From positions 1-61,258 of the forward strand of contig JBFMFP010000001.1 of the NCBI GenBank assembly GCA_040751885.1: a DNA stretch of 61,258 bases. The letters run 5' to 3'. Positions 4,171 through 48,980 of this stretch are shown here, in pieces. How positions within the stretch are numbered: position 1 is the first letter of the stretch; the number at the start of each line of letters is the position of its first letter. The notes under the pieces were generated by a model. It made no database searches, had not been told where the DNA came from, and saw only the letters and a program-made list of their open reading frames with translations. The stretch is from Nanobdellota archaeon (GTDB lineage Archaea > Nanobdellota > Nanobdellia > Woesearchaeales > GW2011-AR9). Made by a program: the position numbers and the translations under genes.

Positions 4171-5419
4171 AGCGAGGGAAATCCTAGATAGTAGAGGAAA
4201 CCCGACAGTTGAAGTAGATGTCTTTATAGGCAGCAATAAATATACTGCATCCGTGCCCAGCGGAGCATCTACAGGAAAATACGAAGCTCTGGAGTTAAGA
4301 GATAAAGACAAGCGTTACCTGGGTAAAGGTGTACAAAAAGCTGTCAGTAATGTCAATACAAAAATTGCTCCTTTGCTGGTTGGCAAAGATTGCTGCCGGC
4401 AGAAAGAGATTGATTCTCTGATGATTAAAAAAGACGGCACTAAAAATAAGCAGAAGCTGGGAGCCAATGCTATCTTAGGCGTTTCCTTAGCCTCTGCCCG
4501 TGCTGCTGCAGGTGAGCAGGACAAGCAGTTGTACCAATATATTCATGAGCTATGCAGGCCGGACAAAAAAATGTCCCTCCCCCGGCCTTTCTTTAACGTT
4601 ATCAATGGGGGTAAACATGCCGGGAATGCGCTGGTTTTTCAGGAGTTTATGATTGTGCCAAAAGCTGATTCTTTCTGTGAAGCGCTGAGGATGGGCAGCG
4701 AAGTGTACCATGTGTTAAAATCAATCATTGAACAAAAGTATGGCATAAACGCAGTTAATGTCGGTGATGAAGGGGGTTTTGCTCCGCCGATAAAAACAGC
4801 GGAAGAGGCTTTTGATTTATTGATAGCAGCGATAAAAAAATCTGGTTATGCTGGAAGAATGGATTTAGCGATGGACTGTGCCGCGTCTGAGTTTTATAAA
4901 AAGGGTTATTATCATATTCACAGAAAAATAAAAAAAGATGAATTACTAAACTATTATCTTAAGCTGATTAAAAAATATCCCCTAATTTCCATTGAAGATC
5001 CTTTTGAGCAGGATGATTTTTCCAGTTTTGCAGAATTGAAAAAGAGAAGCGGTATCCAAATTGTAGGTGATGATTTAACAGTCACCAGTATCAAAAGAAT
5101 AGAAAAAGCCAGCAAAGAAAAAAGCTGTAACTGTTTATTGCTGAAAGTAAACCAGATTGGTACTTTAACAGAAGCTCTTCAGGCAGTACAATCAGCTTAC
5201 AAAAACGGCTGGAAAGTGATGGTCAGCCACCGTTCCGGCGAGACGGAAGATGCGTTCATTGCCGACCTGGCTGTAGGCATTGGCTGTGGAATGCTTAAGG
5301 CTGGCGCTCCCTGCCGGGGAGAAAGGACAGCAAAATACAACCGCCTGCTGAGAATTGAAGAATTCATAACCACGTCCCCTAAACATATAACTGCACCTCC
5401 TAAACATTTATATACGTAA
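4148..5419 (+). CDS. eno: Enolase (phosphopyruvate hydratase)
   Basis: 423 aa. N-terminus [22 protein letters not shown] plus SHRSGETED and the other enolase signature blocks. Confidence 0.95.
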
Positions 5420-5436
5420 AATTTTTGGTCTTAACC

Positions 5437-6048
5437 ATGCCCGCAAAACCTATTCCAAAAGATCAGCTTGTTCAAGTTGCATCTTCCAGTGTTAAGTATA
5501 AAGACATCTTTGACATGAAGACTTTTTATGAAGCGCTGCACGAATGGCTGGCCGAATATCAATGGACGGATATTCAGGATAAATCTGATAAATACGAAAC
5601 TTTTTATGGCGAGCGCATTGGCCGGGATGGGGCTAAAGAGTTATGGATACGCTGGCGGATGCACAGGAATCCCGAAGGTGCGCCCATGCTGACCTATTAC
5701 CTTGATTTTGACTACCACTGCCTGCAGCTGATCTCTACTGAAGTTGTCCGCGAAGGGAAAAAGCTAAAGGTAAATAAAGGGGAAGTTGAAATCATTGTCA
5801 AAGCTTTTATTGAAGAGAAATACAAAGAGAAATTTGCCGGGCATTCTCTGCTCAGGCATGTTGGCGGGCTTTTTTCCCGCAGGATCTATGATGTAATAAT
5901 GAATCAAAGGAAAAAAGAGTTATATCAGGAAGTTTACATCCTTCTTAATTTTATAAAACAGTGGTTTAAATTAAAGAGGTACCACCCTTACGAAGAAGTA
6001 AAGCCTTTCCAGACCAGTTATGCCTGGCCGTCGCATTTGGAGAAATGA
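5437..6048 (+). CDS. Hypothetical protein
   Basis: Long ORF with coding-like composition. The ATG at 5437 is preferred over the TTG at 5425. No recognisable motif. Confidence 0.55.
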   Translation: MPAKPIPKDQLVQVASSSVKYKDIFDMKTFYEALHEWLAEYQWTDIQDKSDKYETFYGERIGRDGAKELWIRWRMHRNPEGAPMLTYYLDFDYHCLQLISTEVVREGKKLKVNKGEVEIIVKAFIEEKYKEKFAGHSLLRHVGGLFSRRIYDVIMNQRKKELYQEVYILLNFIKQWFKLKRYHPYEEVKPFQTSYAWPSHLEK

Positions 6049-7928: not shown

Positions 7929-8253
7929 TTTTCTGCCCGTGATGTCTTTGGTTAGTAAGAGTTCTATAAGTCAACATGGCTTTTTGTCTCACTTTCTATA
8001 GAAAAGTTTTTATTCCTCCCTGCCCTGTTAATATATACTTTGATTTATACGCCACGGAGATAAAATGGGAGAAGGGTTGCATGATACTTATTTCCTTAGG
8101 GAGCACTACTTCAAAACAAAAGAGCCAAAGCAGTACATCCCTCAGACGATTGACGACTATCTCTCCAGAATGGGGCGAAGCGGCTTTTCTGCTCCAAGTG
8201 TTAGCGTATGGAAATTCCTGTTAGTTTCGCCGGCCTACGAGCGAGAACTAGAA

Positions 8254-28488: not shown

Positions 28489-28836
28489 TTAATCTAAGCC
28501 CAAACTTACTTTTATTGCCAAATTGATTCTGCTTATTAAATGATTATCCAAAGAGCCAATTCTTTTTGTAATTCTCGATTTGTCAATGGTTCTTATTTGA
28601 TTTAATAAAATTGTTGAATCCATATTTAAGCCCGATTCTTTTTTTAGAATTGTAACATTGGTGGGAAATTCTTTGGTAAATATTTTTGAAGTGATAGGAG
28701 CAATTACCGTTGTAGGAGAATATTCATTCCCAAAATCATTTTGAAGAACAACCGCAGGCCTTGTTCTGCCCTGCTCACTGCCTATTACAGGGCCTAAATT
28801 TACTAAAATTATATCTCCTCTTTTTATTTTAATCAA
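28489..28836 (-). CDS. mazF: MazF/PemK-family endoribonuclease toxin
   Basis: IKRGDIILVNLGPVIGSEQGRTRPAVVLQND. Confidence 0.85.
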   Translation of the reverse strand: MIKIKRGDIILVNLGPVIGSEQGRTRPAVVLQNDFGNEYSPTTVIAPITSKIFTKEFPTNVTILKKESGLNMDSTILLNQIRTIDKSRITKRIGSLDNHLISRINLAIKVSLGLD

Positions 28837-28848
28837 TTTTAATCAATT

Positions 28849-29070
28849 TTAATCCCAGCTTTTATCTGCTGTTTCCCATTCTTTATTTACAGCCAATGTT
28901 TCAGAAGCCATTTCTTTATAGCCCTCAATTAAGAGCTTTTGTTCGCGTCTCTTTTGTTGCTCAGCAAATTTCATAAGATTTACAATAACTTCTTCGTATG
29001 TTTCTTTGTTAGTTTTTAACTTTTCAAGCTCACTCTTTACATCTTCTCCTATTTGAATTGTTGTTACCAT
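28849..29070 (-). CDS. Putative cognate antitoxin
   Basis: 73-aa ORF 12 nt upstream of mazF on the same strand. No motif recognised beyond its position. Confidence 0.5.
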   Translation of the reverse strand: MVTTIQIGEDVKSELEKLKTNKETYEEVIVNLMKFAEQQKRREQKLLIEGYKEMASETLAVNKEWETADKSWD

Positions 29071-29159
29071 CTGTACTATAGAATAACTATAGTTTATAAA
29101 TCTTCTTGTTTTTTAGATAGAACGAGGGCATTATTATAAAACATTAAGAATAAAAAAAC

Positions 29160-29421
29160 TGCCCCGGCCGGGAATTTCACAGATGTCACGCAAATGTCAC
29201 GCCATTTGACAGGCGGAGCCTACGCTTCGCTTCGGCACAGATGTCACGCCGTTGGAGAGGCGAGGGCATGCATCTGCTTTGAACCCGGGTCACTGCCTTT
29301 CCTTGGATTTCTCTCTCGAAAGGGCAGTATGATAGTTTATCCTCCGGTAAACCCCAGAGATATGGGATTTCACGCGGTTTGTCCCTGATTTAACAATCAG
29401 ACCGGACTACACCACCGGGGC
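29160..29421 (-). tRNA. tRNA-Glu(UUC) with three introns (D-loop, 37/38 and T-loop 59/60)
   Basis: Minus-strand read: GCCCCGG-TG-GTGTAGTCCGGTC[~65 nt]TATCAT-A-CTGCC-CTTTCG[18 nt]A-GGCAG-TGAC-CCGGG-TTCAAA[104 nt]T-CCCGG-CCGGGGC-A. Confidence 0.8.
29174..29277 (-). other. T-loop (59/60) intron, family 1, in tRNA-Glu
   Basis: The junctions form CCGGG/UUCA/AAG/CAGAUG...CAUCUG/UGAA/AUU/CCCGG, a canonical bulge-helix-bulge. The core is homologous to 44804-44917 and 33298-33427. Confidence 0.75.
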
Positions 29422-29856: not shown

Positions 29857-29951
29857 TGAGTGCAGGGAATCGTGAATGCGGATAAATTAAGAATATAGAT
29901 TAAATCAAGAATATAGGTCAAATTAAGAATATAGACTAATGTAGACAATTG

Positions 29952-31058
29952 ATGCTTGATACCATGAGAAATCTGAGCGCAGCTTTAATTTCACAGGGAA
30001 GCAAAAGTTCCCTCATGACGGCTGAAGCTATGAGGAAGTATTTTAGCCGTGTGGACATGCTCCAGCTAAAGAATGTTAAAGTCAGTCTGGGCAAGGAAAG
30101 CGGGGTATATTACGAGGGCAAACCCCTGGATTATTACGATTGTGTTTATATCAAAGGCTCATTCCGTTATGCGAATCTGCAGCGTTCAATTGCTCTCATG
30201 CTGGAAGGCAAAGTTCCCTATATGCCCTTTCCTGCAAACAGTTTTACTGTCGTCCATAACAAGCTCTTGACCCATTTAATTTTGCAGCAGCATAATATTC
30301 CCATGCCAAAAACGTTTATTTCTCCGACGACGGATGCGGCGAAAGAGCTTCTTGGGATGATAAAATATCCCCTCGTCATGAAATTTCCGCAGGGAACGCA
30401 GGGAAAGGGGGTAATGTTTGCGGATACGTTCAGCTCAGCATCTTCCTTATTGGATGCTTTAGGAGTATTAAACCAGCCGTTTATCGTTCAGGAGTATGTG
30501 GAAACCGGTGGGACGGACGTTCGAGCCCTGGTTGTAGGGGATAAAGTTGTGGCGGCAATGCGCAGGAGGGCGCAACGGGAAGAAAAAAGGGCTAATATTC
30601 ATGCCGGCGGCAATGGTGAATTGGCTGTTTTAGACAGGGAAGCAGTTGCTCTGGCTTTAAAGACGGCAAGAATTCTTGAGGTAGATATCTGTGGTGTGGA
30701 TATGTTGGAAGGCTCTTTTGGTCCCGTGGTCATAGAAGCTAACCTTTCCCCCGGGGTGCAAGGCATAAATGAAGGTGCGCTCCTGGACCTTCCCGATGAA
30801 ATCGCTAAATTTCTCTTTAAAAAGACAGAAGAAGCTTTATACAAAAAAAACAAGCAGGCGGCAGATGAAGTAATGAAGGGCCTTACTTTGGAGTCCAAAA
30901 CTCCGCCTGGCCAGAAAATAATCACCGATCTTAAGTTCCGCGGGGAGAGAATTATTCTGCCGGAATGGATTACTAAAATTACCGGATTTAATGAGCAAAA
31001 AGAGTATATAATAAAAGCTGGCAAAGGCAGGTTGGAGGTGGAAGAGAATTGGGAGTAA
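29952..31058 (+). CDS. rimK: RimK-family ATP-grasp alpha-L-glutamate ligase
   Basis: ATP-grasp blocks (PLVMKFPQGTQGKGV, VQEYVETGGTDVRALVVG, CGVDMLE). Confidence 0.8.
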   Translation: MLDTMRNLSAALISQGSKSSLMTAEAMRKYFSRVDMLQLKNVKVSLGKESGVYYEGKPLDYYDCVYIKGSFRYANLQRSIALMLEGKVPYMPFPANSFTVVHNKLLTHLILQQHNIPMPKTFISPTTDAAKELLGMIKYPLVMKFPQGTQGKGVMFADTFSSASSLLDALGVLNQPFIVQEYVETGGTDVRALVVGDKVVAAMRRRAQREEKRANIHAGGNGELAVLDREAVALALKTARILEVDICGVDMLEGSFGPVVIEANLSPGVQGINEGALLDLPDEIAKFLFKKTEEALYKKNKQAADEVMKGLTLESKTPPGQKIITDLKFRGERIILPEWITKITGFNEQKEYIIKAGKGRLEVEENWE

Positions 31059-31172
31059 GGGCTGATTTTTTAAAAAATTATAGAAGACAGCTTAATACTT
31101 GCTTATGATAATACTTGCTTATGATAAAAAATATATTTAAAAAAAGATTCTAAAAAATAAATTGATATAAAA

Positions 31173-31399
31173 GTAATACTTCAGTAACCTGAAGTTCAGC
31201 AAAGTCGTTAGGGTCACTTTGTTCCCAAGTTGCCTGACGGCAACCTAGTCTGTGAGCCACGACGATTTCCTTTACAGTTTATCGTAGGTATAACCAAAGT
31301 ATTTTCGCAGGAAATCGTACTTGTACTTCCGTAAATGGCCCTTCGTGGCTCACCTCTTGGCCAAGACGACGACTTTGCTTCACAAAGCTGAAGTATTAC
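31173..31399. mobile_element. TIR-bounded structured element, copy 1 (MITE-like or novel ncRNA)
   Basis: Perfect 12-bp termini gtaatacttcag / ctgaagtattac. Identical 8-bp atataaaa on both flanks (31165-31172 and 31400-31407). Nested internal helices such as gtgagccacga/tcgtggctcac. Homologous to 34496-34833. Confidence 0.6.
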
Positions 31400-31439
31400 A
31401 TATAAAAAATAAATTAATAAAGCATTAAACAACAAAAAA

Positions 31440-31796
31440 TTATTTCTTTTTTTTCTTTGTTACCTTTGCGGCTTTCTTTTCTTTAGCACTTTCTTCTTCA
31501 ATCACTTCTTCAGCAGGCTCTTCTTCTTCACTTTCCTGCTTTCTTTCTTGCTTTTCTTCGTCTTCTTTGTCTCTCTTCTTCCTGAACCAGATCAGGTAAA
31601 TAATCGGCAGCAAACCCAGTGTATTCAAGATTAAGATAGCTATAAACCAGCCTTTCTGCCCATTTTTTGCAGAGAACCACAGCCCAAGGCCATTCCAGAC
31701 GATGCTCCAGACGAACACTATTGCCAGCCCGAGCAGTACCTGAACAGGCAGCGTCTGAAAAGGCTGCTGGTATAAATCATAGAGTGCATTGAACAT
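31440..31796 (-). CDS. Small membrane protein with a charged C-terminal tail
   Basis: Two predicted TM helices followed by a KRDKEDEEKQERKQESEEEE tail. Confidence 0.6.
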   Translation of the reverse strand: MFNALYDLYQQPFQTLPVQVLLGLAIVFVWSIVWNGLGLWFSAKNGQKGWFIAILILNTLGLLPIIYLIWFRKKRDKEDEEKQERKQESEEEEPAEEVIEEESAKEKKAAKVTKKKKK

Positions 31797-31862
31797 AGTC
31801 TGCTTAATTTCACTTCTTCTTTTTAAATTTTTGTATAGAGAAAACTATCTTTTTGTATGTTT

Positions 31863-32798
31863 CTATTTTCTTACTTCCTTTTCTCTTTTTACTTCCCTTT
31901 TCTGTGTTTTTTTTCTTTGTTTTTTCTTTGTTTTTCTTTTAGAAGATTTAAGCGGATTGATTTTCTCCAAGTCCTCTAGAATGTCAGAGGCAATGAAGGA
32001 ATAGCCCTTTCTCTTTTTGAGCAATAAATCCCCTACATAACCGTTTATATAAGCAGCGGCTAGCGCACTCTTAAACAAATCCCCCGTTTTGGCTAAAAAG
32101 CCGACAGCCAGCCCAGCCAGAATATCCCCTGTTCCGCCTTTGGTCATGCCCTGGTTTCCTGTTCTGTTGTAAGCTATTTTATTGTTGGAAATGATGATGT
32201 CCGTAGGGCCTTTAAGCAGAAGAACGTTGTTGTTCTGCAGGAAGTAACGCAGGTTGCCTTGCAGTATTTCTGCCTTTTCCTTGGCATTGGACAGCTTTAA
32301 TTTGGGAAGAAGAAATTCCTTGCCGCTGTTAACAAGCATCATTTCCAGCTCAGTTTCATGGGGAGTAACTATACTGTTGTTAAATTCTTTAAATGAAAGC
32401 GATTTTAACGCATCGGCATCAACAACTTTAGGCTTTTGTGATTTCCTGACAAAATGCTGGCAGAACTTATCGGCTTTTCTGGTAATGCCATTGCCAATAA
32501 GCACGGCGTCAAATTTCTCCGCATATTTGATGATTTCTTTGGCGTTTTTAATATTAAATATTTTTCCTTTTACTTTGTAGGTTATTAAGTCTGGTGAGTA
32601 TTGATGCACGGCCCAGGCTACTTTTTCCGGTGCAGCTATCGTAACTAAGTCACATCCTGCCCTCAGTGCAGCCAGCCCGGCCAGAACTATTGCCCCTACA
32701 TACTCTTCAGAGCCGCCGATAATCAGAGCATGGCCATTCTCCCCCTTATGGGAAGTTTTCTTCCGCTCCATGAGGTTTTTAACGTGGTTTAAGTTCAT
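31863..32798 (-). CDS. ADP/ATP-dependent NAD(P)H-hydrate dehydratase (YjeF C-terminal type) with a Lys-rich tail
   Basis: HKGENGHALIIGGSEEYVGA and GGTGDILAGL motifs. Confidence 0.85.
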   Translation of the reverse strand: MNLNHVKNLMERKKTSHKGENGHALIIGGSEEYVGAIVLAGLAALRAGCDLVTIAAPEKVAWAVHQYSPDLITYKVKGKIFNIKNAKEIIKYAEKFDAVLIGNGITRKADKFCQHFVRKSQKPKVVDADALKSLSFKEFNNSIVTPHETELEMMLVNSGKEFLLPKLKLSNAKEKAEILQGNLRYFLQNNNVLLLKGPTDIIISNNKIAYNRTGNQGMTKGGTGDILAGLAVGFLAKTGDLFKSALAAAYINGYVGDLLLKKRKGYSFIASDILEDLEKINPLKSSKRKTKKKQRKKTQKREVKREKEVRK

Positions 32799-33206
32799 CT
32801 TTGTTGTGCCGCTTATTGTTCTTTTATTTGTTCTTTTATTATTCCTTCCTAATGACGTATTCTATTGTAATGATGTATTCACGTATTCTATTTCTATTGT
32901 AATGACATATTTCTATTGTATTCTAAGCTATTCTAAGGCATAATCTTCGACTTATGCTTTTTTTTAGCTTTATATATGTTTGTTGTAATTATCAAGTAGA
33001 AAATAAGAAAAAGAGAGTTTATTTTTAAATAAGAAGGTTCTAAATTGCTTCCTTTTTAAATAAGGGCATTTTTAATACACCTTTAATGAATTGTTTTTTG
33101 GAGAGTTTTGTAGGTTTTTTGCAAGTGTTTTTCTGTTGAACGGGCTTTGCTGATATTTTTCCGTTGAGAAAACCTTTTTAAAGAGCGCCTCTTCTTCCCC
33201 AGCTAT

Positions 33207-33441
33207 GGCCCCGTAGCTTAGCCTGGTAGAGCGCTGCTCTTATATGGGAGTGTTCTAAACAAAATCCTCCAAGCAAAGCAGAGGTCCCGAGTTCAAAGCA
33301 GATGCTACGCAGATGTCACGTCATCTGAGAGGCGAACCCTCGCTTCGCTCGGGGAAGACAAACATCCCCCTTGAGAGGCGAAGCCTACGCTGCGCTTCGG
33401 CAAGATAATAGCGTTCATCTACGAAAGTCTCGGCGGGGCCA
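33207..33441 (+). tRNA. tRNA-Ile(UAU) with a 37/38 intron and a 130-nt T-loop intron
   Basis: GGCCCCG-TA-GCTTAGCCTGGTAGAGC-G-CTGCT-CTTATA[~31 nt]A-AGCAG-AGGTC-CCGAG-TTCAAA[130 nt]T-CTCGG-CGGGGCC-A. Confidence 0.8.
33298..33427 (+). other. T-loop (59/60) intron, family 1, in tRNA-Ile (core inverted relative to the host tRNA)
   Basis: Plus-strand 33308-33354 is collinear with plus-strand 44808-44853, although the two host tRNAs are on opposite strands. Confidence 0.75.
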
Positions 33442-33518
33442 GTTTTTGTATTGTAACCGTTGTTTTAGAAAATTTATTCATTAAGAGTGCTTGAAATTCA
33501 TCTCTTTTCTTACATCTT

Positions 33519-34148
33519 TCAACACGTCTCCACAACATCCATCAGCGCAGCTGTAAACTGGACCTTCTTTACAATCGGGTGGGTGATGACATCACTGGTT
33601 TCGCCCTTGTGCAAGGTAATTACCTGCTCGGCAAGTATCTTTCCCGTGCTTTTCTTTATTATTTTAATTGGGATGAGAGGTTTGTCCCCCTTACAGTAGG
33701 CAGGCGTAGTCATTAATTTCCATTCTAATGCTCCGGCATAACTGTAACTGCCTTCTCCGAGCTTTAGGGAGTATTCTTCCCCGTCGCTGGTCTTAACAGT
33801 TACACTTGTAATTGTGCATTTCACTTCACAGTTTGTGTTATACAAATCGTTTATTTTGCCGCATTTGCCGTCAATGCATAGTAACTCGCCTGTACAATTG
33901 CTGTTGGCTTCGCATTTCAAAGGCTCGGCTGGCTTTACCGGCTCAGGAGCAGCGGATTTATTCTCTTCTGCTGTCGGTATTTTCTCCGGGGGCATTTCTT
34001 CAGCGGTTGTCGTCTTTTCTATTTCAGAAATTTTTGCGAGCTCCTCTCTTTTTTCTCCGCAGGAAACAAGAAAAATTAAGCAGGCTAAAACCAGGCAGAA
34101 CATTGCTGATGAGAAAACATTTTTTTTGGAGATATTAATTTTAATCAC
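33519..34148 (-). CDS. Secreted lipoprotein-like hypothetical protein
   Basis: Signal plus lipobox LVSC, a Pro/Glu-rich linker, and a Cys-rich module. Confidence 0.6.
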   Translation of the reverse strand: MIKINISKKNVFSSAMFCLVLACLIFLVSCGEKREELAKISEIEKTTTAEEMPPEKIPTAEENKSAAPEPVKPAEPLKCEANSNCTGELLCIDGKCGKINDLYNTNCEVKCTITSVTVKTSDGEEYSLKLGEGSYSYAGALEWKLMTTPAYCKGDKPLIPIKIIKKSTGKILAEQVITLHKGETSDVITHPIVKKVQFTAALMDVVETC

Positions 34149-34185
34149 CTTCTTTTTTTACGTCGTAATCTTAATCTGAATCAAA

Positions 34186-34370
34186 TGCGGCTGCCGGGAC
34201 TTCCAAGCTGCAACTATTTAGCTCGGTGGGCTTTATGCCCGCCATACTCGCCTAGATTGCTGGCTTTTGAACCCGGGTCACAGCCTCTCTGCGTAAGCAG
34301 AAAATAAAGCTTATCAATATTCTTTCTGCTCTTGGCAAGGCCGCATCTTGGACCACTGGACTACAGCCGC
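34186..34370 (-). tRNA. tRNA-Gly(GCC) with a 37/38 intron and a 66-nt T-loop intron
   Basis: GCGGCTG-TA-GTCCAGTGGTCCAAGAT-G-CGGCC-TTGCCA[~46 nt]A-GGCTG-TGAC-CCGGG-TTCAAA[66 nt]T-CCCGG-CAGCCGC-A. Confidence 0.8.
34200..34265 (-). other. T-loop (59/60) intron, family 2, in tRNA-Gly
   Basis: AGCCAGCAATCT..AGGCGAGTATGGCGGGCATAAAGCCCACCGAG..TTGCAGCTTGGAAG, homologous to 44577-44698. Confidence 0.75.
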
Positions 34371-34495
34371 ATAGATCAGTCCAAAATGTAGCTGATTAAT
34401 AAATTTTGTTGTGATTTGGCACAGGCCATCACTCACTTTTTGGATTGTGCCTGTGATTTCAAAATTGTTTAGGAAATGAAATCTATCTGCACCAA

Positions 34496-34833
34496 CGTAA
34501 TTATTCAGCTTCCTGAATCAAGTCATTTCATTCGTGCAGAGTCACTCTGTTCCTAGTTTGCTTACCAGCAAAAGTCAAAATGCTTAACGCATTTCGACGT
34601 TCAGCAAAGTCGTCTTGGTCGTGAATTTGGCAAAATCCTTGCAATGATTATCGTCAGTCAATCCGACGTTGTCATGGAAGGGATTTTGACATTAATTTTC
34701 AGTATATGGCTCTACCAAATTCACTTATTGACCCTGACGCAAGAAATACGAAAACTATCGTATTTCTGCGCAGAAAATAAGTCGTTGCTTATTTTCTTGC
34801 GACGACTTTGCTTCACAAAGCTGAATAATTACG
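34496..34833. mobile_element. TIR-bounded structured element, copy 2
   Basis: 14-bp termini cgtaattattcagc / gctgaataattacg. Shares a 5' module of about 70 nt and the 3' module gacgactttgcttcacaaagctgaa with copy 1. Stem covariation at 34557-34572. Confidence 0.6.
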
Positions 34834-34877
34834 CGCCAACAAAAACTTAATAAACAAACTTGGAATTTTACATTTAT

Positions 34878-35043
34878 CCCCCCTTAGTTTAGCGGCTAGA
34901 ACACTCGGCTGTAGAAATCCTTTAGAGTTGTCTGCTGACTGATATGAAAAAGGATCAGCCGTTACCGAGGGATCCCCGGTTCAAATATTGACGCTCGAGG
35001 CGACAATGCTTCGAACGGCAGTGAGAATGTCCGGGAGGGGGGA
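34878..35043 (+). tRNA. tRNA-Tyr(GUA) (C1-G72) with a 37/38 intron and a 44-nt T-loop insert
   Basis: CCCCCCT-TA-GTTTAGCGGCTAGAAC-A-CTCGG-CTGTAG[~49 nt]A-CCGAG-GGATC-CCCGG-TTCAAA[44 nt]T-CCGGG-AGGGGGG-A. Confidence 0.75.
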
Positions 35044-35140
35044 TTTAAAGGAAGGATGGTTTTCTATCCTTCTTTTTTCTTTGTCTATAAGACAATATTC
35101 TATAAGACAAAATTCTATAAGACAAACAAGTTATTATAAA

Positions 35141-35386
35141 TCACCTGTTCAACCTCACCAAAAATACTGCTGCAACTGCAATAAGTATTACAGCTACGAC
35201 CGCCGCAACAGCCGTGAACCAAGAGGCGTCTGTATCAAAAGTATCAAAACCGGAACTTGAAGCTGCCGTTGCTCCGGTAATCCCGCTGCCCTGTGTAGAA
35301 ACAACTATGCCTAAAACAGCTACGCCCAGAATAATAAACAAAATTATTAACGTCCTCTTCAGGTCTTTTTTGCTTTCTTCTTCCAT
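35141..35386 (-). CDS. Small two-TM membrane protein
   Basis: 81 aa with two hydrophobic helices flanking a Ser/Thr/Gly-rich loop. Confidence 0.5.
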   Translation of the reverse strand: MEEESKKDLKRTLIILFIILGVAVLGIVVSTQGSGITGATAASSSGFDTFDTDASWFTAVAAVVAVILIAVAAVFLVRLNR

Positions 35387-40149: not shown

Positions 40150-40398
40150 TTGTTAAACCCTTATTGTTTTTGTATAGTTTTAGTCTAATTGTTTTTGGTA
40201 TAATTTTAGTCTAATTGTTTTTTGATAGTTTTAGTATAATTTTAGTATAATGATTACTAAGTTTAATTCTCATCTGTGTTTAATTTTCGTCTATGTCTAA
40301 TTTTCACCTGTGTTTAATTTTTGTCTATGTCTAACTTTCATCTAAGTTTAATTTTCATCTAAGTTTAATTTTTATTTATGTCTAACTTTCACCTGTGT
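40150..40398. repeat. 249-bp spacer between rpoB' and rpoA' made of two degenerate tandem-repeat families
   Basis: attgttttt(g)gtata(a/g)ttttagtcta x3, then gtttaattttcatctaa / gtctatgtctaa(c/t)tttcacctgt units. The last unit runs into the rpoB' stop codon (40399-40401). Confidence 0.85.
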
Positions 40399-42204
40399 TT
40401 AATACTTGCTTTTCAAATTTAATTTGGCATACACTCCTAAAGTCCTGATTTCATCAAGCAGCAGCTTAAAGGCATAACTCATTTCAATGTTGGACATTTC
40501 TGAATTCTCACCATATAAAGGAGATAAGGAACGCTCATTTTTGCGGGCGTCATAAAAGCCCATTAATCCTGACTTCTCACATACCGGCACAACTATCTTA
40601 TCCGAGTCAAACCTTTCTTTCAGGAGAAGCGAAGCTCCATGGGCGATAAACGTGTCTTTTTCCATCTCCCCCAGACGCAGGCCCCCTTCTTTGGCTTTAC
40701 CTTCCGTAGGCTGCCTTGTTAGCAATTGTATCGGACCTCTTGCTCTGGACTGCATTTTATTTGCAACCATGTGCCTTAGACGGAGGTAATACATGTTTCC
40801 AACGTAAATTCTCGCCAGCATCCGCTTGCCGCTCCGCCCATCATAAAACGCTTCAGTTCCGTCTTCGTTAAAGCCGAGGCTGAGCAGCTCCTTCCTCAGC
40901 GCTTCTTCCTTCTCGCCTTCAAACAAAGTTCCGTCTACAAATCTTGCGGCCATTGCTCCGACCTTGCCGCTGATTAACTCATTAAGATGGGAAACAGTCA
41001 TTCTTGAAGAAACACCGTGGGGAGTGAAGATCAGATCTGGAACTATCCCTGATTCAGAGAAAGGCATATCCTGCGCCGGAACCAATATTCCCGTTACTCC
41101 TTTTTGCCCGTGCCTGCTGGTGAACTTATCCCCTATCTCAGGCACGCGCTCTTCACGCAACCTGACCTGTACTAATTTATTTCCCTCCTCATTTTCGGTA
41201 AGAAGGACGAAGTCAGCTATTCCTTTCTCGCCATGCCTTAAGATAACAGAACTTTCCCTGCGCACAGCCGCAGAGAGGTTATATTCGTCCATGCTGCTTA
41301 AGAAACGCGGCGGGCTTGTCCTGCCAATAACAACATCCCCTTCGTCAACCGTTGCTTCCGGATAAATGATGCCATCTTCCTCCAGGAAACGGTAATCATG
41401 CTCGCTCCTGTAGCCTTTAATTTCTTTGTCAGGAATTGCCACTTCGTCCATTAATCCACCTGAATATCTTAGTTCATGGGCTTCAACCGGGCGGAAGTAA
41501 GTGCTTCGTGCCAGTCCCCTTTCTACAGAACCCTTCCCAAGGATAACTCCATCTTCCATGTTGTAACCATCATAACACATTACGGCTACAACCATGTTCT
41601 GCCCGGAAGGATGCTGGTCATAATCTGTGATATCGTGCACTTTTGTTTTCAATATAGGATACTGGGGATAATGGAGGATATTGGAATCCATATCCATACG
41701 CAGATGAAAATTAGCTGCGTAAAAGCCCAAGGCCTGTTTCTGGTTTTTACTGCCAATAATCAAGCGGGAAGATTGGTTGTAATTGCCAAAGGGAACCAAA
41801 GCAGTGGTAATGCCGACAATAGCTCCGGGAGTGATTTCCAGATGAGTGTGCTCAGGAGTAAGGCCCTCCTCGGTGTAGGCAATCAAAGTATTCTCCTCTT
41901 CGGCAGCGTCCAAATACTCCACAACCCCCTGCCTGATCAAATCCATCCAGGATATTTCTCCTTCGTTAAGCTGCTTAAGGTGCTTGTCAGTAAGCAAAGG
42001 CTTTCCTTCTTTAACAACTATTAAAGGCCTTCTCGCCCTGCCTTCATCGCTGAGGAGATGAACTTCGTCGGTAGCAGCAAGGTAATGCACATTAACCAGC
42101 TCAGAAACGGCACCTTTTCTGCGCAGGTCTTTAAACTCGCTGACAAACTGCTGGGCATCGTCAACGCTGCCGATAAATTTTGAATTCAAATAGACGTCAG
42201 CCAT
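40399..42204 (-). CDS. rpoB1: DNA-directed RNA polymerase subunit B' (C-terminal half of Rpo2)
   Basis: 601 aa with a GDKFTSRHGQKGV block. Confidence 0.95.
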   Translation of the reverse strand: MADVYLNSKFIGSVDDAQQFVSEFKDLRRKGAVSELVNVHYLAATDEVHLLSDEGRARRPLIVVKEGKPLLTDKHLKQLNEGEISWMDLIRQGVVEYLDAAEEENTLIAYTEEGLTPEHTHLEITPGAIVGITTALVPFGNYNQSSRLIIGSKNQKQALGFYAANFHLRMDMDSNILHYPQYPILKTKVHDITDYDQHPSGQNMVVAVMCYDGYNMEDGVILGKGSVERGLARSTYFRPVEAHELRYSGGLMDEVAIPDKEIKGYRSEHDYRFLEEDGIIYPEATVDEGDVVIGRTSPPRFLSSMDEYNLSAAVRRESSVILRHGEKGIADFVLLTENEEGNKLVQVRLREERVPEIGDKFTSRHGQKGVTGILVPAQDMPFSESGIVPDLIFTPHGVSSRMTVSHLNELISGKVGAMAARFVDGTLFEGEKEEALRKELLSLGFNEDGTEAFYDGRSGKRMLARIYVGNMYYLRLRHMVANKMQSRARGPIQLLTRQPTEGKAKEGGLRLGEMEKDTFIAHGASLLLKERFDSDKIVVPVCEKSGLMGFYDARKNERSLSPLYGENSEMSNIEMSYAFKLLLDEIRTLGVYAKLNLKSKY

Positions 42205-44789: not shown

Positions 44790-45004
44790 CGCCCTGGCCG
44801 GGAATTTCACAGATGTCACGCCATCTGAGAGGCGAACCTTCGCTTCGCTCAGGAAGACCGAAACGTGTCTTCTAAGAGGCGAGGCGACTACGCTTCGTCG
44901 CAAGGGCGTGCACTTGCTTTGAACCCGGGTCGAAGCCTTTCTCTAAACCCTCTTCCCACGGGCCTGCGACAGGGCTTCATGCTAGGCCACTACACCACCA
45001 GGGC
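44790..45004 (-). tRNA. tRNA-Asp(GUC) with an anticodon-loop intron and a 114-nt T-loop intron
   Basis: GCCCTGG-TG-GTGTAGTGGCCTAGCAT-G-AAGCC-CTGTCG[~29 nt]-GGCTT-CGAC-CCGGG-TTCAAA[114 nt]T-CCCGG-CCAGGGC-G. Lies 3 nt from tRNA-Lys. Confidence 0.8.
44804..44917 (-). other. T-loop (59/60) intron, family 1, in tRNA-Asp
   Basis: Contains two direct gagaggcga..cgcttcg units. Its ends resemble imperfect inverted repeats (GCAAGTGCACGCC / GGCGTGACATCTGTG). Confidence 0.75.
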
Positions 45005-45630: not shown

Positions 45631-45983
45631 AAACAGTTTATAATTTCCTAAATTCCCAGAGTTTTAGGGATTAGTATGTCAAAAATGGCTGAAATCTGTT
45701 TTTGCTGTTTGGTCATTTCTTGTGTCACAAGTTCTGTATCGTAGACTTTGCATTTGAGGTTTCTCATTGGTAACGACTGTAAAAATTTTCGGGTGTCTAA
45801 CGGCTTGGCTTAAAAAGAAAGCCAAGAATGTTGTAGAACTAGCTGAGATACTCAATAAACAGGTGTTTGTTAAAAACGCAAAAGCTTAAAATTAAGAAAC
45901 TTTTAAATAAGAGGCTTAATAAACAACACAAAGGTAAACAACACACAACACAAAGGTAAACAACACAAAGTAGGGGAGTGCAT

Positions 45984-48980
45984 ATGAACGAAGAACAAAG
46001 CGAACAGCGGATTGGACCTCCAGCCGAATTAAAAAAAATTAATGATACTACCTGGGAGCTACCTGCTTCTTATAAGAAAGGCATGCGTGTTCCTGCGCGG
46101 ATTATTGCTACTGAAGAGCTAATTAAAGCTATGGATAATGGCGTGTTTAACCAGATCAGCAACGTAGCAACTCTTCCAGGCATTCAAAAGTATGCTTTCT
46201 GCATGCCCGACGGGCACTGGGGCTATGGGTTCCCAATAGGTGGAGTGGCGGCATTTGACCCGGAGGAGCAGGGGATAATCTCTCCGGGAGGAATAGGTTT
46301 TGACATAAATTGTTTAGTTAAAGGCTCAAAGATTTTAACGGATTTCGGTTATTTAAAACCCGTTGAAGATTTTGAAACGGAGTTTGTAGATGTTGATATC
46401 CCCTATTCTTTTTACTCTTTGAAATTACAAAAGTGTATGCAATCCCTTCTTTCTTTTGATACCAATAAAAAATCCTTCTCTTCTAAAAGCATAGGTTATT
46501 TTATGAAAAAAAAACAGGCTGGTTCAATTCTCCAAATTAAAAGCAATTTAGGATACGTTATTGAAGTCACTGAAGACCACCCTATCTTAACTAAAGAAGG
46601 AATGGTGGAAGCAGGGAGGTTATCTAAAAGCCAGGAAATTGCAATTTATCCTTACGAAGGAGTTTCCTACGAATGTTTAGATGAAGTTATGTTAGTTGAT
46701 GACCAAACCCTTTTTACAAAACAGGAAAAAGAGGAATTAGTGAAAAGGAATCTTTTTCCGTTGAGTATTAAAAATGAAAAACTACCCATATTAACAAAGC
46801 TGTTTGGTTACCTGCTCGGTGATGGTCAAATATATTTCTCCGGGAAGAAAGGGTTTGTTTGTGCTTATGGGGCAGAGGAGGATTTAAAAGAGATACAAAA
46901 AGACATAAATAAGTTGGGTTTTTCAGCAAATATTTATGGGCGTGAAAGAGAACATTCAATTCCAACAAAATATGGACTAGTCAGATTTTCTAACAAGAAC
47001 TTTGAATTGCATACTTCCTCAAAATCCTTGGTTAAGTTATTTTTTGCTTTAGGCTACCCAAATGGCGTAAAAACAAATGTTCCTTTTGTTGTTCCCGAGT
47101 GGATAATGAATTCACCATTATGGATTAAGCGGCTTTTTTTATCAGGATTGTTTGGGGCTGAGTTATCAAAGCCGAGAACCCATACTAAAACCGGGTTTGA
47201 CTGTCCAACCTTTTCCCAGAATAAGAACACCCTCCTCTTGGAAAATGCTAGGTATTATTGCATTCAAATCATGAAATTGCTTGAAGAATTTGGTGTTAAC
47301 ACCCATAAACTTCTTGTAAGAGATGATTATTCGAATCGCTACAGAAAAACTAGCCGGTTAAAGCTACAAATCTCTTCAGAAGAAGAAAATTTGTTAAAAT
47401 TGTGGAGTAAAATAGGGTTTAGTTACAATCAAAAAAGGGAATTATTATCGCATATTGGTATAATTTACATCAAAGAAAAAAAGATTCTAACACAAAAACG
47501 TAAAGAAGTTGCTCAGAAAATTGAAGAATACAGAAAGAAAGGATTGAAATTAACCGAAATTCAAAAGTTATTGCTGTCGCCAATTACTAATGAAAGGTTT
47601 ATTACAAGGCATTTTTATGAGCAAGCTGATTATAGGATTCATTTAGATTTTCTTTCATTTAATTCTTTTGTAAAGTTAAAAAAGGAGCAATACGATGAAT
47701 ACGGTTGTTTTTTTGATGCCGTAGAAGCAGTCACTAAGAAAGAATATGATGATTATGTTTATGATTTTAATATTCCAGAAACTCATAATTTCATTGCGGG
47801 AAATGTAATTGTTTCCAATTGCGGCATGCGCTTAATTACCACCAATTTAACGGTCAATGAAGTTAAGCCAAAGATAAAAGAACTGGTTGATGCTCTTTAT
47901 CAGCAGGTTCCCGCCGGGGTGGGCTGCAAGGGTTTTGTAAAACTGAGCAGGCAGGAGTTTAGGGAAGTGATGAAAGAAGGGGCGCAATGGTGCTTTAACT
48001 ACGGCTATGCTACGCAATCGGATATAGAGCATATAGAAAGCCGGGGCAAAATTCCCGGAGCTGACCCTTCCAAAGTTTCTGACAAGGCAGTTAAAAGAGG
48101 GTTTGACCAGCTGGGCACTTTGGGAAGCGGGAACCATTACTTAGAAATTCAGGAAGTCAAAAAAGAAAATATCTTCAATAGGGAATGGGCAAAAGTAATG
48201 GGCATAACTAAGTCCGGGCAGATAGTCATTATGGTCCATTGCGGCTCCCGGGGCTTTGGGCATCAGATAGGAACAGACTATTTACGGACATTTTTAGACG
48301 TGATGCCCAAGTATGGTATTGAGATTCTTGATAAAGAGCTTGCCTGTGCGCCATTTAATTCTGCAGAAGGGCAAGCGTATTATGCGGCCATGGCCTGTGC
48401 AGCAAACATGGCTTTTGCCAACAGGCAGGTGATACATCAGAGGATAAAAGAAGTGTTCAGCAAAGTATTTGCAAAGACAGCTGAAGAGATGGAAATAAAC
48501 CTTGTTTACGACGTAGCCCACAACATCGCCAAGCTGGAAAAGCACATTATTAACGGCAGGGAAAAAGAATTATTAGTGCACAGAAAAGGGGCCACCCGTG
48601 CCTTTGGTCCGAAAAGGGCAGCTGAGCTTCCTAAGAAATATGCTCAGATTGGGCAGCCGGTGATTTTAGGCGGAAGCATGGAAACTGGCTCGTATCTTTT
48701 GCTGGGAACAGATGGAGCTGATGACACTTTTGCCTCTACTGCCCATGGCGCAGGAAGGACGATGAGCCGGGCAGCAGCAAAGAGGACAGTAAGAGGGGAG
48801 CAGCTACAGAAAGAGATGGAAAAACAGGGGATATATGTGCATAGTGTAACCATGTCTGGATTAGCAGAAGAAGCCGGAAAAGCGTATAAAGATATTGAAG
48901 CGGTAGTGGATTCGTTGGAAATTGCAGGGATTACCAAAAGAGTTGTCGCTTTGAAGCCGATAGGGAATGTGAAAGGGTAA
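45984..48980 (+). CDS. rtcB: RtcB tRNA-splicing ligase interrupted by an intein
   Basis: The PGGIGFDIN / CGMRLITTN halves of the RtcB metal-binding motif are separated by 503 aa. The C-terminal RtcB blocks (GSRGFGHQ, HRKGATRA, STAHGAGR) are intact. Confidence 0.95.
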   Translation: MNEEQSEQRIGPPAELKKINDTTWELPASYKKGMRVPARIIATEELIKAMDNGVFNQISNVATLPGIQKYAFCMPDGHWGYGFPIGGVAAFDPEEQGIISPGGIGFDINCLVKGSKILTDFGYLKPVEDFETEFVDVDIPYSFYSLKLQKCMQSLLSFDTNKKSFSSKSIGYFMKKKQAGSILQIKSNLGYVIEVTEDHPILTKEGMVEAGRLSKSQEIAIYPYEGVSYECLDEVMLVDDQTLFTKQEKEELVKRNLFPLSIKNEKLPILTKLFGYLLGDGQIYFSGKKGFVCAYGAEEDLKEIQKDINKLGFSANIYGREREHSIPTKYGLVRFSNKNFELHTSSKSLVKLFFALGYPNGVKTNVPFVVPEWIMNSPLWIKRLFLSGLFGAELSKPRTHTKTGFDCPTFSQNKNTLLLENARYYCIQIMKLLEEFGVNTHKLLVRDDYSNRYRKTSRLKLQISSEEENLLKLWSKIGFSYNQKRELLSHIGIIYIKEKKILTQKRKEVAQKIEEYRKKGLKLTEIQKLLLSPITNERFITRHFYEQADYRIHLDFLSFNSFVKLKKEQYDEYGCFFDAVEAVTKKEYDDYVYDFNIPETHNFIAGNVIVSNCGMRLITTNLTVNEVKPKIKELVDALYQQVPAGVGCKGFVKLSRQEFREVMKEGAQWCFNYGYATQSDIEHIESRGKIPGADPSKVSDKAVKRGFDQLGTLGSGNHYLEIQEVKKENIFNREWAKVMGITKSGQIVIMVHCGSRGFGHQIGTDYLRTFLDVMPKYGIEILDKELACAPFNSAEGQAYYAAMACAANMAFANRQVIHQRIKEVFSKVFAKTAEEMEINLVYDVAHNIAKLEKHIINGREKELLVHRKGATRAFGPKRAAELPKKYAQIGQPVILGGSMETGSYLLLGTDGADDTFASTAHGAGRTMSRAAAKRTVRGEQLQKEMEKQGIYVHSVTMSGLAEEAGKAYKDIEAVVDSLEIAGITKRVVALKPIGNVKG
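46311..47819 (+). mobile_element. Intein with a LAGLIDADG homing-endonuclease domain (503 aa)
   Basis: Starts with Cys (CLVKGSKIL) and ends ...HNFIAGNVIVSN, followed by the extein +1 Cys. Two LAGLIDADG-like motifs (LFGYLLGDGQ, FLSGLFGAE). Confidence 0.9.

Follow-up and report, generated by a model that had tools for sequence, protein, structure and literature searches.

A low-copy family of probable MITEs with IS66-type ends in a Woesearchaeota-like DPANN archaeon

The window, by which we mean the whole stretch of 61,258 nucleotides (61 kb) that was analyzed, is a whole contig of a MAG labelled Nanoarchaeota archaeon and comes from a Woesearchaeota-like DPANN archaeon whose close relatives are labelled Woesearchaeota. 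It carries core genes for RNA polymerase, ribosomal proteins, and an intein-containing RtcB. The last of these, a tRNA-splicing ligase of 1000 aa in total (45978-48980, plus strand), is split by an intein with a LAGLIDADG-like domain. Two intergenic spacers are of concern here. One separates a RimK-like gene from the convergent DUF5652 gene, and the other, as was originally predicted, lies between genes for tRNA-Gly and tRNA-Tyr (Table 1). Neither of these two tRNAs was called by ARAGORN or Rfam on the unspliced sequence, because each has two introns. When the introns are spliced out manually, ARAGORN calls both, as tRNA-Gly(GCC) and tRNA-Tyr(GTA).

Other tRNA genes of the window have two introns each as well. 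In all of these genes, tRNA-Gly and tRNA-Tyr included, one intron interrupts the anticodon loop and the other, which is large (65-135 nt), the T-loop. ARAGORN recovered none of the window's tRNAs and Rfam one alone. A repeat search showed that a 44-nt repeat beginning CAGATGTCACGYCATCTGAGAGGCGAACC is common to several T-loop introns (at 29191, 29238, 33310, and 44810), a distribution suggestive of an intron family that is spreading. In L021, a relative's locus, the orthologue of tRNA-Tyr (about 8025-8160) contains one more insert, its third, within the D-loop. Adjoining an intron-bearing tRNA region is a gene for a MazF/PemK toxin, accompanied by one for a VapB-like antitoxin (28489-29070, minus strand). 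Repeats of other kinds also occur. Where the RNA polymerase B' gene region ends, a 17-nt unit is present eight times in tandem (40240-40425), adjoined by four copies of a repeat of ~26 nt (40167-40254), and in the AT-rich spacer just upstream of the first element described below, AATACTTGCTTATGAT occurs twice as a short tandem duplication (31092-31127).

Architecture of the two elements

Each of the two spacers contains one copy of a short element delimited by inverted repeats. The termini of copy 1 (GTAATACTTCAG and CTGAAGTATTAC) are perfectly inverted over 12/12 positions and those of copy 2 (GTAATTATTCAGCTT and AAGCTGAATAATTAC) over 15/15, and all four start with GTAAT. Copy 2 had been predicted to span 34496-34833. 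The element is real, but these bounds are off by 1 nt per side, the true ones being 34497-34832, and the extra C/G pair at 34496/34833 is part of the flanking 8-bp duplication. The open reading frames that overlap the elements (68 and 73 aa) match no Pfam family.

Table 1. Coordinates of the two elements, their parts, and the neighboring genes
Feature	Position	Strand	Remark
tRNA gene	roughly 29150-29310		two introns
RimK-like gene	29949-31058	+	left neighbor of copy 1
Copy 1 left target-site duplication, ATATAAAA	31165-31172	.	8/8 vs 31400-31407
MITE copy 1	31173-31399	+	227 bp; in RimK-like/DUF5652 spacer
Copy 1 left terminal inverted repeat, GTAATACTTCAG	31173-31184	+	
Copy 1 block B left arm, TTCAGCAAAGTCGT	31195-31208	+	inverted partner of 3' block
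Copy 1 conserved box GTCACTTTGTTCC with hairpin GTTGCC-tgac-GGCAAC	31213-31244	+	stem 2 of the original prediction
Copy 1 3' subterminal block, CGACGACTTTGCTTCACAAAGCTGAA	31367-31392	+	26 nt; holds block B right arm
Copy 1 right terminal inverted repeat	31388-31399	-	GTAATACTTCAG on minus strand
Copy 1 right target-site duplication, ATATAAAA	31400-31407	.	
DUF5652 gene	31440-31796	-	right neighbor of copy 1, convergent with RimK-like gene
tRNA gene	33207-33440	+	two introns
tRNA-Gly(GCC)	34186-34370	-	two introns; left neighbor of copy 2
Copy 2 left target-site duplication, GCACCAAC	34489-34496	.	7/8 vs 34833-34840
MITE copy 2	34497-34832	+	336 bp; in tRNA-Gly/tRNA-Tyr spacer; ends 45 nt upstream of tRNA-Tyr
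Copy 2 left terminal inverted repeat, GTAATTATTCAGCTT	34497-34511	+	
Copy 2 conserved box GTCACTCTGTTCC with hairpin TTTGCT-tacc-AGCAAA	34541-34572	+	
Copy 2 block B left arm, TTCAGCAAAGTCGT	34600-34613	+	~80 nt further in than in copy 1
Copy 2 cargo, two hairpins	34742-34797	+	10-bp stem, 6-nt loop (AAACTA; TCGTTG)
Copy 2 3' subterminal block	34800-34825	+	26 nt; identical to that of copy 1
Copy 2 right terminal inverted repeat	34818-34832	-	
Copy 2 right target-site duplication, GCGCCAAC	34833-34840	.	BLAST homology of relatives starts inside (34838-34840)
tRNA-Tyr(GTA)	34878-35043	+	two introns; right neighbor of copy 2
tRNA gene	roughly 44790-44950		two introns

What do the two copies have in common? 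Besides their ends, they share the 26-nt 3' block, the GTCACTYTGTTCC box, a hairpin, block B (TTCAGCAAAGTCGT), and, for the 5' terminus, a local hairpin partner. A 22-nt 3' motif has exactly two occurrences in the window, where 0 are expected. In copy 2, a degenerate remnant of block B (TCAAGTCATT) occupies the position used in copy 1, and the inward shift of the intact arm looks like an internal rearrangement. Together, the left arm of copy 2 and the right arm of copy 1 rebuild a longer ancestral inverted repeat, CAGCAAAGTCGTCGTCTTGG. The central parts are unrelated, in line with the original prediction: their local alignment scores 19, compared to 15.6 +/- 2.4 for shuffled sequences, and 53 of 500 shuffles reach 19.

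Where the copies correspond, several of their differences are compensated. Stem 2 was correctly placed at 31229-31244 and 34557-34572, and it does contain two double substitutions, G:C to T:A and C:G to T:A, each compensated on both sides; the flanking box GTCACT(T/C)TGTTCC is present at 31213-31225 in copy 1 and 34541-34553 in copy 2. The termini differ between the copies at positions 6 and 7, and the differences are mirrored at both ends. It had further been proposed that the 5' terminus, its local hairpin partner (CTGAAGT in copy 1, CTGAAT in copy 2), and the 3' terminus change together, which is so at position 7 but not at position 6, where the local partner does not follow. Copies 1 and 2 therefore differ at four compensated positions, of which the terminal repeats hold two and a single 6-bp hairpin the other two. 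For the hairpin, the rough odds that four changes would fall as two complementary pairs are ~0.3%, independence assumed. It alone among the features hints at a hairpin maintained as such, a hint that, from two sequences, is suggestive only. Selection on structure, as claimed at the outset, is only weakly supported by four compensated positions in two sequences, but not at the level of RNA, as argued below.

Insertion sites and further copies

Exactly outside the perfect inverted repeats sit 8-bp direct repeats, ATATAAAA on both sides of copy 1 and GCACCAAC and GCGCCAAC to the left and right of copy 2. Calculated over all window positions at these spacings, the chance of such a flank match is 5e-5 for 8/8 and ~1e-3 for at least 7/8; in AT-rich DNA, the corresponding values are 5e-4 and 3e-3. 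Inverted repeats combined with target-site duplications are the signature of insertion by a DDE transposase. Are the elements present at the same sites in relatives? Syntenic loci were retrieved via the NnrD and lipoprotein genes, about 165 kb in total. Copy 1 was not found at the orthologous spacer in five related lineages. The RimK-DUF5652 spacer is 381 bp in the window, compared to 74 bp in the closest relatives (L029 and L030, whose NnrD is 93-96% identical), 49 bp in L032 and L033, 41 bp in L031, and 3 bp in L037. At the site of copy 2, BLAST alignments with four relatives start 3-5 nt ahead of the end of the right duplication, and the conserved tRNA-Tyr promoter block AAAAAYTTAATAAAC directly follows that duplication. 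Since the relatives are without the element and the homology starts in the duplication, both copies are lineage-specific insertions. No base-perfect empty site was recovered among these relatives; the flanks have diverged.

In a lineage of 86% identity, a different insert of ~175 bp occupies this RimK-DUF5652 spacer (L022, 11570-11760; also in L021 and L023-L025). Its ends are imperfect 14-bp inverted sequences (GACTCGGTAGAAAA and GGTTCTGTAGAAAA) with an inner repeat, AAGTCGCC...GGCGACTT, and on either side stands a 9-bp direct repeat, GGATTTAGT, of which the RimK stop codon is part. This insert may represent a further MITE in the same place. It was considered as a member of the present family and not counted: it aligns poorly, its fold is unremarkable (z = -1.8), and homology is doubtful.

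How widespread is the family? Three copies are known, the two in the 61 kb and a partial one in another archaeal MAG (L002). An exact-motif scan of species-representative genomes, one per species, gave 6 hits, of which only that in L002 is real. One such scan of JGI metagenomes gave 14 hits, all judged to be chance matches because the upstream GACTTTGC is absent from them. There were 0 hits in viral contigs, plasmids and phages yielded no BLAST match, and BLAST against the ~165 kb of relatives' syntenic loci found no further copies. As the scans found one outside relative, the family is either rare or fast-evolving. The L002 copy (5270-5619, minus strand) has an intact 3' end, GACGACTTTGCTTCACAAAGCTGAACTATTAC, which also shows GTAAT and has yet another dinucleotide at positions 6-7. 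No 5' inverted repeat is recognizable within the ~320 nt before the contig ends, and the copy is either longer or truncated. A surface-protein-like gene (1007 aa) lies ~150 nt downstream of it. The MAG is labelled Methanosarcinales, a bin label that may differ from the true host.

Folding, cargo hairpins, and the RNA alternative

The cargo of copy 2 includes two hairpins, at 34742-34767 and 34772-34797. Four related hairpins are found in the 86%-identity relative, in an intergenic region of L021 (15534-15715), all of the form WGAAA....-loop-....TTTCW. They are arranged as inverted pairs in L021, and copy 2 holds one pair. When the six are compared, 6/10 stem pairs change on both sides and 0 on one side only, and 98% of the cells pair. 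Judged from these six sequences, the covariation is real, and it is purely Watson-Crick, as in REP-like DNA palindromes. REP/BIME repeats are indeed similar in several respects, namely, the paired 10-bp hairpins, the covarying stems, and the inverted pairs in the relative. The differences from REP/BIME are that the hairpins here are contained in an element that has inverted repeats and target duplications and that their copy number is very low. We know of no RAYT-type transposase for the cargo hairpins.

Do the elements encode structured RNAs? The original prediction left the choice between a modular RNA and a MITE, and of the two it is the MITE that has held up. As modular structured noncoding RNA genes, they would have a closing scaffold, made up of the terminal helix and a CAGCAAAGUCGU/ACGACUUUGCU helix, around variable inner domains, and the compensated changes would reflect selection on RNA structure. 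Both copies do fold far more stably than shuffled sequences (z = -6.2 and -11.3), two helices hold the four compensated positions, and in the cargo of copy 2 the loops are kept while the stems covary with the relative's hairpins. However, the opposite strands of both copies fold as well or better, and G-U accounts for only 5-7 of the 72-114 predicted pairs, a similar number on each strand, and all helices are Watson-Crick almost throughout. With both strands folding equally and G-U pairs rare, palindromy at the level of DNA rather than a strand-specific RNA is indicated, and the lack of one-sided changes among the six cargo hairpins likewise points to DNA palindromes. Rfam matched neither element (whole window at the gathering threshold; 30900-35200 at E <= 10), and in the flanks, read by eye, no T-run follows either copy on the plus strand and no dedicated promoter is evident. 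The elements are also absent from the orthologous sites in all relatives sampled, and an RNA gene would leave the flanking 8-bp direct repeats unexplained. RNA genes are therefore, in our estimation, an improbable account of these elements. The subterminal hairpins at both ends (ACTTCAG-taac-CTGAAGT and CTTTG-cttca-CAAAG) and the REP-like hairpin pairs in the cargo might also bring to mind relics of hairpin-dependent single-strand transposons, either REP-like or of the palindrome-associated IS200/IS605 type. However, elements of the IS200/IS605 type are not known to have terminal inverted repeats or target-site duplications. The present elements have both, and such an origin seems extremely unlikely.

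Two more specific candidates were rejected. A bulge-helix-bulge processing or circular-RNA element, a candidate prompted by the intron-rich tRNAs, would have a 3-nt bulge, a 4-bp helix, and a 3-nt bulge, an arrangement not seen on reading the junction that joins the two closing helices. A conserved housekeeping RNA (such as SRP RNA or RNase P RNA) was set aside on the absence from relatives' orthologous sites and the lack of an Rfam match.

Family affinity, mobilization, and significance

To which transposon family do the elements belong? Duplications of 8 bp are made by several families, including IS6, ISL3, IS256, and IS1595, according to the ISfinder family tables. The elements could be MITEs of one of these other DDE families, with termini that resemble IS66 by coincidence, and neither the window nor the ~165 kb of related loci yielded a transposase that would settle the family. 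Pfam identified none among the window's large ORFs, and tblastn with the IS66 transposase of pHTA426 (described next) matched neither the window nor the related loci. To our knowledge, however, the typical ends of these families (GG..., GGCTCTT...) do not start with GTAA, and over the pattern GTAA-Y-N-N-Y-TCAGC the termini here agree with those of two real IS66-family elements, each with a single ORF. Coincidence therefore has little to recommend it.

The first of the two matching elements resides on Geobacillus kaustophilus pHTA426 (L039, 14107-15741). Its single ORF encodes a 485-aa protein with the Pfam domains DDE_Tnp_IS66 (1.9e-64) and zf-IS66, it terminates in GTATCTATTCAGCCC and GTAACTATTCAGCCC, and the 8-bp duplication around it reads GACGAGTT. 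The copy 2 terminus is identical to the second of these ends at 12/15 positions. The other is ISDge4 of Deinococcus geothermalis, a member of the ISBst12 group of IS66 with the ends GTAACTGCTCAGCA and an 8-bp direct repeat (PMC12898284), to which the copy 2 terminus is identical at 10/14 positions. The pattern also fits copy 1 and the L002 copy (GTAATAGTTCAGCTT). More generally, GTAA termini and 8-bp duplications are the hallmark of IS66, for which inverted repeats starting with GTAAGCG and accompanied by 8-bp direct repeats have been described (PMC11946415). The likeness to the single-ORF ISBst12 group lies in the GTAA..TTCAGC ends, the 8-bp duplication, and perfect or near-perfect inverted repeats of 12-15 bp. 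There are differences too. The two ISBst12-group examples are ~1.6 kb long with a DDE_Tnp_IS66 protein of 449-485 aa, whereas those described here are 227 and 336 bp long with no transposase gene; the ISBst12 examples come from bacteria, whereas the host here is a DPANN archaeon; and, unlike those examples, the present elements hold unrelated cargo and, near their ends, one more conserved block in inverted orientation, GCAAAGTCGTCG. On balance, the elements probably belong to the IS66 family.

Several features support the MITE interpretation: (i) perfect inverted repeats, (ii) 8-bp duplications, (iii) absence in relatives, (iv) no coding capacity, and (v) IS66-type termini. That the elements are non-autonomous DDE transposons is very likely, and we are similarly confident that they are MITEs. 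Mobilization would be in trans, most plausibly by a DDE transposase of the IS66 family (single ORF, ISBst12 type) whose gene lies in another part of the genome. How would mobilization proceed? A transposase, presumably of the IS66 type, would recognize the GTAAT...TTCAGC termini and probably also the block GCAAAGTCGTCG, which is inverted at both ends. The element would then be excised or copied and inserted through an 8-bp staggered cut, the repair of which would leave the 8-bp direct repeats. The elements may still be active in this way. Being the substrate of the transposase, the ends would be kept; the interior would be free cargo, and this accounts for the unrelated cores. Mirrored changes at positions 6-7 are expected since both ends of one element must fit the same transposase; alternatively, they could stem from hairpin-templated correction between the arms of a foldback. 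The compensated hairpin near the left end and the very stable folds would represent DNA-level palindromy of the kind common in MITEs. Besides the missing transposase in the window and related loci, the low number of known copies, and the failure to recover a base-perfect empty site, two observations fit less well with MITEs. The left arm of block B in copy 2 is displaced, which is unexpected if spacing matters for transposase binding, and the compensated hairpin lies outside the inverted repeats, where transposase symmetry alone does not explain it.

Other prokaryotic MITEs include SM1-4 of Sulfolobus, the Correia elements of Neisseria, RUP of pneumococci, and ERIC of enterobacteria. The present elements resemble prokaryotic MITEs in being small, noncoding, and intergenic, in their inverted repeats and duplications, in their strong palindromic folds, and in their reliance on a transposase acting in trans. 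Unlike uniform, high-copy MITE families, the copies described here share only their ends, have wholly different interiors, and are apparently low in number, which places them closer to the idea of a "mobile insertion cassette." For a survey of prokaryotic MITEs, see PMC11602168.

Overall, the elements make up a new MITE family of low copy number, with ends of the IS66/ISBst12 type and a DPANN archaeon as host. This is an ordinary kind of mobile DNA, and none of the results favors a new gene for a structured RNA. For annotation, both regions should be labelled IS66-type MITEs and not candidate structured RNAs. As the elements show, stem changes that are compensated between two copies of such palindromic mobile DNA do not count as evidence for RNA. 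The elements also attest to recent activity of transposons in a small DPANN (Woesearchaeota-like) genome and thereby imply a transposase of the IS66 family, and one of the insertions, copy 2, is located just upstream of a tRNA promoter. A more speculative idea, which we regard as unlikely, is that an IS66-type MITE serves as a vehicle that spreads protein-binding or regulatory RNA/DNA hairpins, REP-like or terminator-like, in DPANN genomes. It rests on the kept 6-nt loops and fully compensated stems of the cargo hairpins, on their recurrence in an unrelated intergenic region of another Woesearchaeal lineage, and on the left-end hairpin, whose pairing is kept through two double changes. If the cargo hairpins are indeed functional, the elements would be mobile regulatory cassettes in archaea and not inert junk.
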